A program made the translations under genes and the position numbers. A stretch of 64,000 bases of DNA from Myxococcota bacterium (GTDB taxonomy: Bacteria > Myxococcota_A > UBA796 > CAJQPC01): assembly GCA_036229005.1 (NCBI GenBank), contig JAZAMN010000049.1, forward strand, positions 32,001-96,000, read 5' to 3'. Below the pieces are notes generated by a model that ran no database searches, was not told the DNA's origin, and was given only the letters and a program-made list of their open reading frames with translations. Of the stretch, positions 5,333 through 6,787 are shown piece after piece. The stretch's first letter is position 1; the number at the start of each line of letters is the position of its first letter.

Positions 5333-6523
5333 CTATTGGCTACCCAGGATCTCGGTGACCACGCCAGCGCCCACGGTGCGGGAGCCCTCGCGGACCGCGA
5401 AGCGGGTGCCGGCCTCCATGGGCACCGCCCGCTGGAGGGTGACCTGGAGGGAGGCGCGCTCACCAGGCTGCATGACCCCGCGCTCTCCGAGGTCCAGCGC
5501 CCCGGTGACGTCCGTGGTGCCGAAGAAGAACTGTGGCATGTAGCCGGAGGTGAAGGCCTTGTGGCGGCCGCCCTCCTCCTTGGGGATGGCGTAGAAGTCC
5601 ACCTGCGCGCGGCGGTGGGAGGCGATGGAGCGGGGAGCCGCAATGACCTGCCCGCGCTCGACCTCCTCCCGACGCACACCCCGGAGCAAGCAGCCCACGT
5701 TCATGCCGGCCTCGCCGATCACGTCCTTGTGGAACTGCTGCACGCCGGTGCAGGTCACCACGCGCTCACGACCCTCCAGGGAGAGGCCGACGATCTCGAC
5801 CTCATCGCCGGGGCGGATGACGCCCTGATCGATGCGGCCGGTCACGACGGTCCCGCGCCCGGGGATGGTGTGCACGCCCTCGATCGCCATGCGGAAGGGA
5901 CCGTCCAGGTTCCGGACGGGGTCCGGGATCTCCTGGTCCAGCGCCTCCAGCAGCTCGACGATGCACGCGACGGCGGGGTCCTGGCTGCGGCCGGCCTGCA
6001 CGGCCTCGAGGGCCTTGAGGGCAGAGCCGTAGACAAAACGGACGTCCGCGTAGCCCTGGGCCTCCAGCTCCTCCGCGGTCTCCATCTCCACCAGCTCCAG
6101 GAGCTCGGGATCGGCGATGTCCGTCTTGTTGACGAAGACCACCAGGTGATCGATGTCGGCGGTGGTGCGGGCCAGCAGGATGTGCTCCTTGGTCTGCACC
6201 TGGGGGCCCTGGGAGCCGTCGACCAAGAGGATCGCGCCGTCCATCTGGGAGGCGCCGGTGATCATGTTCTTGATGTAGTCGGCGTGGCCGGGGCAGTCGA
6301 TGTGGGCGTAGTGGCGGGTAGGGGTCTCGTACTCCACGTGGGCGGTGTTGATGGTGATGCCGCGGGCCCGCTCCTCCGGCGCCCGGTCGATCTGGTCGAA
6401 GGCGACGGCGGCGCCCCCGTGGATGGCGGCGGCGACGTGGGTGAGCGCGGCGGTGAGGGTGGTCTTGCCGTGGTCGACGTGACCGATGGTCCCGACATTC
6501 ACGTGCAGCTTCTTGTTGTGCAT
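5333..6523 (-). CDS. tuf: Elongation factor Tu, divergent stand-alone paralog (tuf3-like), 396 aa
   Basis: [34 protein letters not shown] and [26 protein letters not shown]; no neighbouring rps/fus/secE genes. Confidence 0.93.
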
Positions 6524-6584
6524 GGGTGCCTTCCTCCCTTGCGGGTGTTGGCGGTTGAAGGGGGCCGGGCGGATCCCGACCCCG

Positions 6585-6626
6585 AAACGAAGAACGCCCC
6601 CTCGGGCGCAGAGGCCGGAGGGGGCG
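6585..6626 (-). terminator. Attenuator terminator in the tuf 5' leader
   Basis: Minus strand CGCCCCCTC-cggcctctgcgccc-GAGGGGGCG followed by TTCTTCGTTT, between the uORF stop and the tuf RBS. Confidence 0.75.
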
Positions 6627-6659
6627 AGCAGGGCGAGCTTCAGCTTGGGGTGGCTGTGT

Positions 6660-6752
6660 CTACCTGAGGTCCCTCCGGGCGCACGACGACGACGACGCGC
6701 TGGACGAATCCAGCGAGCGGCCAAGGTCGGCGAGGGGGGGGATGAAGCTCAT
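6660..6752 (-). CDS. Putative leader (attenuator) peptide [30 protein letters not shown], 30 aa
   Basis: ATG 7 nt after TAACTT; run of TCG codons; stop lies just upstream of the terminator; 3' codons are complementary to the terminator 5' arm. Confidence 0.65.
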
Positions 6753-6759
6753 GCGGGCC

Positions 6760-6787
6760 AAGTTAGGACCCGGTTCTGGAGCGGCAA
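6760..6787 (-). promoter_or_regulatory. Sigma70-type promoter for the leaderless uORF-tuf transcript
   Basis: TTGCCG-N16-TAACTT-N7-ATG; the same -35 hexamer occurs in the tRNA-Gly promoter. Confidence 0.6.

Follow-up and report, generated by a model that had tools for sequence, protein, structure and literature searches.

A probable ribosome-mediated attenuator with candidate serine sensor codons upstream of a divergent EF-Tu paralog in Myxococcota

Among described systems, the closest to the locus reported here are the whiB7/wblC leaders of actinobacteria, in which efficient translation of an upstream ORF (uORF) is described as allowing a terminator to form and stalling as allowing an antiterminator (10.1101/2023.06.02.543512), and the his/trp/leu-type leader attenuators, described as having their biased regulatory codons ahead of the antiterminator (PMC1183508). 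The controlled gene resembles Streptomyces tuf3, encoding EF-Tu3, which is presented as a divergent, dispensable EF-Tu paralog beside the housekeeping copy (PMC4342817, PMC7157823, PMC12309360) and as controlled by the activator WblC (PMC7157823). The reason for keeping a divergent spare EF-Tu, and its inducer, have been open since tuf3 was described.

The window analysed here is a 64,000-nucleotide stretch of a Myxococcota genome (GenBank assembly GCA_036229005.1, contig JAZAMN010000049.1, positions 32,001 to 96,000 of the forward strand). Its minus strand carries a divergent EF-Tu paralog gene preceded by a promoter-like sequence, a short uORF and a terminator (Table 1), an arrangement that, judged by comparison of sequences, is very probably a working ribosome-mediated attenuator. 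As in whiB7/wblC, a uORF with an amino acid bias would gate a terminator/antiterminator pair and the output would serve under translation stress; unlike whiB7/wblC, the leader controls a translation factor directly and not a transcription factor, its bias is toward the serine codons TCA and TCG and not toward alanine, its host belongs to the Myxococcota, and neither the window nor 11 related loci gave an Rfam covariance-model match close to the gathering score. With the his/trp/leu type it shares biased codons upstream of the antiterminator, but its output is no biosynthetic enzyme for the sensed amino acid and the codons are spread over ~15 positions rather than gathered in a short run. The source genome also holds a leaderless His attenuator before hisG (C21:23700-23925, L297), with six His codons, an antiterminator and a terminator, and the promoter-to-AUG and stop-to-terminator spacings of this leader are the same as those of the tuf leader. 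Streptomyces coelicolor reportedly has an auxiliary, indolmycin-resistant TrpRS under ribosome-mediated attenuation, which would likewise be a spare part of the translation apparatus that tolerates a drug and is induced when ribosomes stall at particular codons, though the codon there is that of the enzyme's own amino acid whereas EF-Tu serves all codons. Control by an activator, as described for tuf3, likewise differs from the uORF leader seen here. The earlier note on this DNA knew of no such leader for a myxobacterial tuf paralog, and a literature search at the level of abstracts showed no uORF-based attenuation of such a gene; a Streptomyces tuf3 leader may already have been noted in the primary tuf3 papers. 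In PMC2965389, tuf appears only within the rpsL operon. The attenuator family is real and apparently undescribed.

Table 1. Features of the tuf paralog locus, in positions of the window
Feature	Position	Strand	Basis
Candidate sigma-70-type promoter: -35 TTGCCG 6787-6782, 16-nt spacer, -10 TAACTT 6765-6760	6760..6787	minus	sequence
uORF of 30 codons with little or no leader, ATG 7 nt after the -10 box	6660..6752	minus	ORF reading
Putative regulatory TCG codons (13, 16 and 20-23)	6684..6716	minus	family-wide in-frame TCA/TCG enrichment
UUCG-loop hairpin within the uORF	6698..6715	minus	z -3.1; genuine in the source copy, no family feature
Antiterminator strand CCGGAGGG, complement of 6615-6622 in the terminator 5' arm	6671..6678	minus	sequence; covaries with its own terminator arm
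Intrinsic terminator: stem-loop 6626-6595, U-rich tail 6594-6585	6585..6626	minus	folding and stem changes in aligned leaders
tuf Shine-Dalgarno	6533..6538	minus	sequence
Divergent EF-Tu paralog gene, 396 aa, three domains, G-motifs intact	5333..6523	minus	profile matches
Probable terminator 3' of tuf	5285..5325	minus	by eye; absent from the scanner list

The promoter, uORF, hairpin, terminator and uORF-terminator complementarity that had been described from this DNA are each present at the positions in Table 1. The uORF contains nine Ser codons, four TCG in succession, a Pro-Pro pair and two AGG codons, and its peptide had no match in Pfam or NCBIfam. A promoter scanner found 0 promoters in the source sequence, the TTGCCG-N16-TAACTT pair scoring below its threshold. 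Compared with shuffles, the terminator folds at a z of -2.2, the antiterminator fragment folds no better (z 0.17) and the duplex of antiterminator and terminator arm reaches p = 0.03. Taken alone, the source sequence offers modest evidence for a regulatory leader, and it is conservation in homologous leaders that lifts it above chance. The tuf unit is probably monocistronic because of the probable terminator that follows it, and a 463-aa, TTG-started frame was rejected as its start since this is an in-frame extension and the homologs begin at ATG 6523. Upstream of the leader lies an APH-family phosphotransferase gene (6829-7791, minus strand), probably unrelated to the leader because the upstream DNA differs among homologous leaders.

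The paralog is 56% identical to the product of the housekeeping tuf gene on contig C11 of the source genome and scores below the TIGR00485 cut-off, which the C11 copy passes. A close paralog (65-69% identity) was present in 6 of 60 relatives, with ordinary tuf genes at 55-61%, and a clade-specific motif search of species genomes returned 94 loci; almost all of them bear the label Myxococcota or Deltaproteobacteria, and a few are labelled Alphaproteobacteria, Acidobacteriota, Bradymonadia or Planctomycetota. The same motif occurs at no fewer than 120 metagenome loci (at least that number) and on 15 viral contigs; all of these locus counts are samples because the exact-match pattern misses variants. 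A phylum-wide search with two mismatches (46/401) was rejected as a count, as many of its matches read VDASEG and are probably other GTPases.

The source locus, six relatives and the 94 motif matches gave 101 paralog loci, reduced to 77 distinct leaders by dropping 14 without flank, five without a gene start or enough upstream DNA and five duplicates. A common layout is shared by 46 of the 77: a -35 box, a uORF without a Shine-Dalgarno (SD) sequence, an antiterminator within the uORF end and, ~30 nt past the stop, a C-rich/G-rich terminator, with the uORF ending before the terminator in 46/46. A held-out set of 59 leaders was drawn from at least 120 metagenome loci (minus 12 without a start, 39 too short and 10 duplicates), and 18 of them passed the same rules among the matches listed, so that the uORF, whose conservation the earlier note had proposed as a test, keeps its position in both sets. 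These family counts are lower bounds because variants, L163 among them, escape the CCC/GGG terminator filter; upstream of tuf, L163 has a long TCG run and a terminator/antiterminator pair re-lettered throughout. The leader also occurs in cultured Archangium and Vitiosangium strains. Without choosing a uORF, the 46 leaders have a TTG[AC]C peak 170-190 nt and an ATG peak 120-150 nt upstream of the terminator, and their stop codons show a near-desert from -110 to -60 and a peak from -40 to -20 relative to it. The homologous uORFs run to 21-54 codons (median 32), and in 45 of 46 the stop lies 21-40 nt before the terminator C-run; a -35-like box 33-47 nt before the uORF start, itself part of the selection rule, is found in 34/46. 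The uORFs appear leaderless or nearly so, since an SD-like motif precedes 4 of 58 uORFs vs 54 of 58 tuf starts.

This constancy bears on a non-regulatory reading of the locus, a plain terminator for upstream transcription next to a chance small ORF. A loose filter for promoter, uORF and hairpin gives 57 matches, mostly noise, in the GC-rich source genome, and the promoter scores below the scanner threshold, both of which such a reading would predict, but the positions of -35 box, start, stop and antiterminator are kept across divergent leaders, with compensatory changes and replication in the held-out set, leaving it extremely improbable. A leader model, applied to the source genome with 150 candidates scored per genome, matched the tuf paralog only, and in five other genomes it returned four tuf leaders and four weak matches, the latter rejected as three terminators after an upstream gene and one directed toward an opposite-strand tRNA gene. 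A script scan of the source genome found no second convincing member. A genome-wide regulon of the leader was rejected on these results, the searches having found tuf leaders only and otherwise weak matches.

The antiterminator is tied to its own terminator by covariation. Windows that start 54-66 nt upstream pair best with the terminator 5' arm, and the best antiterminator duplex falls inside the uORF in 58/58 leaders. When the binding of cognate and foreign arms was compared across the 46 leaders, the double-centred cognate advantage was -2.46 kcal/mol (permutation sd 0.36), reached by 0 of 10,000 permutations (extreme -1.49); these arm permutations keep the relatedness between leaders. With 22 distinct arms the advantage was -3.09 (sd 0.56), and in the held-out leaders -2.53 (sd 0.57, extreme -2.29) among the matches listed. 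Taken one by one, just 20 of the 46 loci do better than dinucleotide shuffles, and compensatory changes are clear in L038/L075, L026, L077 and L088. The terminator stem has two-sided changes at 9 of 11 pairs in 43 aligned leaders, more covariation than in 500 shuffles and in all slid registers, with a test structure drawn from, and so favouring, the source sequence. The covarying stems that the earlier note had proposed to look for are accordingly present, the antiterminator and terminator arm covarying in both sets.

The note had further inferred that a ribosome at the stop masks the antiterminator (OFF) and that earlier stalling frees it (ON), a reading which the comparative tests and a uORF-masking model support. 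In the source leader, the modelled probability of the antiterminator is 0.68-0.99 when one of codons 12-20 occupies the P site and 0.00 when codon 22 or 30 does, so that the model switches between codons 20 and 22; it treats folding at equilibrium, masks 15 nt past the P site and assumes the ribosome footprint. As proposed, transcription would start at or just before the uORF AUG with a ribosome trailing the RNA polymerase. At normal speed the ribosome would cover the antiterminator, the terminator would fold, transcription would stop at ~6585 and tuf would be off. With a ribosome delayed in the TCA/TCG block, the antiterminator would stay uncovered and pair with the terminator 5' arm, allowing transcription of tuf.

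The codons on which a ribosome might be delayed were counted in 43 uORFs, leaving out the doubtful picks L039, L050 and L059. Serine makes up 19% of uORF codons vs 6% genome-wide, and 195 of the 261 Ser codons are TCA/TCG vs 18 AGY, AGC being the commonest Ser codon of the source genome. Counted by frame (uORF frame, then the two others), TCA occurs 87/14/2, TCG 108/56/8 and AGC 17/8/53, while TCC (45/33/4) and TCT (3/30/8) are barely or not enriched in frame; among the matches listed, the held-out counts are 32/9/2 for TCA and 48/35/8 for TCG. The uORF frame is the richest in TCA/TCG in 34/43 uORFs and, among the matches listed, in 11/16 held-out uORFs. Binned by distance upstream of the antiterminator, TCA/TCG take up 18-30% of codons in each bin between -60 and -7 nt, falling to 6/116 in the last 6 nt and 1/116 at the antiterminator start. 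The end of the block lies 6-12 nt upstream of the antiterminator, and a ribosome stalled within the block would therefore leave the antiterminator free. From these patterns, UCA/UCG codons are probably the sensor. The serine codons singled out in the earlier note thus stood, as the conserved TCA/TCG class, and its other uORF features did not: the Pro-Pro pair (2/43), AGG/AGA (17/43, with no in-frame enrichment) and the UUCG hairpin (1/43) were each rejected as family features. An apparent Cys enrichment (3x genome) was also dropped, the held-out TGC counts by frame being 9/11/7 among the matches listed.

The main rival reading makes the same attenuator a classical serine-starvation sensor and the paralog a starvation-time elongation factor. 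It is the main rival because UCN codons, and not AGY codons, are described as slowed by serine starvation in B. subtilis (PMC3862929), so that the TCN-over-AGY bias of the uORFs has the signature of starvation there. Both the serine content and the hisG leader, in which this geometry serves amino-acid sensing in the same genome, fit such a sensor. However, the controlled gene adds nothing to serine supply, TCC/TCT, two codons that starvation also affects in B. subtilis, show little or no in-frame enrichment, and Tyr or Ala replaces Ser in related leaders; serine sensing is, on balance, unlikely.

A second rival is a general uncoupling sensor of the whiB7/wblC type that would answer any elongation inhibitor, the Ser-rich tract being merely a slow or unstructured spacer. 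The uORF peptide is unconserved, close pairs differing by 185 non-synonymous vs 63 synonymous codons, which fits a general sensor and also makes a conserved arrest peptide unlikely. The rare codons ACA, CGA and GCA exceed genome usage as well, an inherited frame could account for part of the frame bias, and the whiB7 uORF is described as answering many stresses despite its Ala bias (10.1101/2023.06.02.543512). Some family uORFs hold 0-2 TCA/TCG and the leaders of two actinobacterial EF-Tu3-like genes are Ala-rich with 2-3 Ser, which together point to a less specific sensor. The TCA/TCG block stops sharply at the antiterminator, however, and in close pairs (n = 168) the partner of a TCA/TCG codon is TCA/TCG in 130 cases, TCC in 6 and AGY in 0, an exchange almost confined to the two codons, and a general sensor is therefore rather improbable. 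The 5' parts of the uORFs fold just slightly better than shuffles (mean z -0.65). Conceivably, the TCR tract also acts at the level of RNA.

The encoded protein bears on what the UCA/UCG codons would report. In E. coli numbering, 70 clade proteins were compared with 14 housekeeping EF-Tu: the EF-Tu core is kept, with H66, H84, N135, K136, R288 and R318 invariant in 70/70, and the changes include R333G (70/70), E259Q (60/70), R262H (55/70) and T334A (29/70), with Y160 changed in 65/70, D216 in 42/70 and F218 in 54/70 and A375 retained in 65/70. Y160 also differs in 4 of the 14 housekeeping proteins (N160). Presumed pocket changes in the source paralog are D216G, F218H, E259Q and R262H. We take R333 and T334 to be pulvomycin-resistance sites; E259 presumably closes over GE2270A, and positions 216, 218 and 259 are assumed to line the aminoacyl pocket of EF-Tu. 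Tyr160Asn is among the kirromycin-resistance changes listed in 10.1101/2024.02.10.575802. The clade appears to carry changes at or near EF-Tu inhibitor sites, and the paralog is probably inhibitor-tolerant. Escape of the source protein from Lit or Doc is unsupported, since it retains G59, I60 and T382, presumably the target sites of these proteins.

In the full reading that we favour, by a narrow balance of judgement, the attenuator is induced by loss of active EF-Tu, sensed as slow decoding of UCA/UCG. The natural trigger would be the loss of working housekeeping EF-Tu to inhibitors or toxins that block ternary-complex formation; UCA/UCG would act as sentinel codons and the paralog would restore elongation. 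This trigger is favoured because the output is an EF-Tu changed at inhibitor sites and because, in a published model, the first ternary complex to be lost when EF-Tu runs short is that of a tRNA in low supply (PMC6692046). GE2270A is an unlikely natural trigger here because it is described as active on Gram-positives (PMC4307249). A further reading, distinctly unlikely, is that the paralog is a substrate-specialised EF-Tu whose remodelled pocket prefers the UCA/UCG-reading tRNA, the leader measuring the same ternary complex; if true, a translation factor would sit in a closed feedback loop specific for particular codons, and large phages would have reused that factor along with tRNA arrays of their own.

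In a tree in which two actinobacterial EF-Tu3-like proteins stand in for EF-Tu3, the clade is sister to them (support 1.0), with both branches long and outgroups few, so that long-branch attraction is possible. These proteins are only 53-54% identical to the source protein and lack R333G and E259Q, and their R230A and G275A are missing from the source protein. Like the clade, they have a short uORF and a hairpin upstream of the gene (L128:458-613 and L129:608-685), the uORF being Ala-rich and the strong hairpin starting from the stop codon, which suggests that tuf3 may also be leader-controlled. Attenuator-type leaders are scattered throughout the paralog clade.

Other members of the clade have other surroundings. 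Loci without the attenuator usually adjoin tRNA genes (36/39 in metagenomes among the matches listed, 16/31 in genomes and 14/15 on viral contigs), and nine of the viral contigs with the paralog are >=190 kb. On large phage contigs (L252-L266) the paralog lies within tRNA arrays and branches at several points of the tree; the array-type metagenome loci are L132-L207. In one array/phage subclade, G59T and I60V occur together (6/13 viral, 17/28 array-type among the matches listed, 0/54 attenuator-type), the G59-I60 bond being, we assume, the Lit cleavage site. An unannotated two-hairpin motif directly before tuf (~80 nt) recurs in array-type loci (L025, L132, L133, L135, L253, L255, L261 and others); the L135 copy had no Rfam match, and the motif is a candidate EF-Tu-responsive or processing element. 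At L033, L034, L064, L065, L074, L094 and L097, and less clearly at L041, a second leader type consists of an SD-led uORF of 20-23 codons with paired TAT/TAC Tyr codons, followed by a tRNA-Tyr(GTA) gene and then tuf, possibly a Tyr-codon sensor that would induce both tRNA-Tyr and tuf. A third type, in Nannocystaceae (L022, L066, L087, L093), has a uORF ending in LRALRWPGVL and no U-tail, with the 3' part of the uORF complementary to a segment just past the stop, and all four proteins carry A375V and Y160F. The L208 tuf paralog has an apparent intron-like insertion just after the P-loop start.

The tRNA arrays, together with the Tyr-codon uORF that precedes tRNA-Tyr and the tuf paralog in one subgroup, would suit a conflict-response kit in which the uORF reports damage done to the tRNA that reads UCA/UCG by an anticodon nuclease, a tRNA-modifying toxin or the loss of a wobble modification, and EF-Tu is described as cleaved by some defence systems (10.64898/2026.01.04.697583). 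There is no tRNA gene near the attenuator-type source copy, however, so the source locus could not replace a lost tRNA, and a tRNA-damage sentinel is very improbable here.

If the EF-Tu-loss reading is true, the locus would place a translation factor, and not amino-acid synthesis, under an attenuator that uses serine codons, and a widespread EF-Tu clade, which large phages also carry, would be a candidate for where EF-Tu inhibitor tolerance arises in nature. For the divergent spare EF-Tu, the handle gained is a 170-nt switch with candidate sensor codons that can be recoded and assayed.
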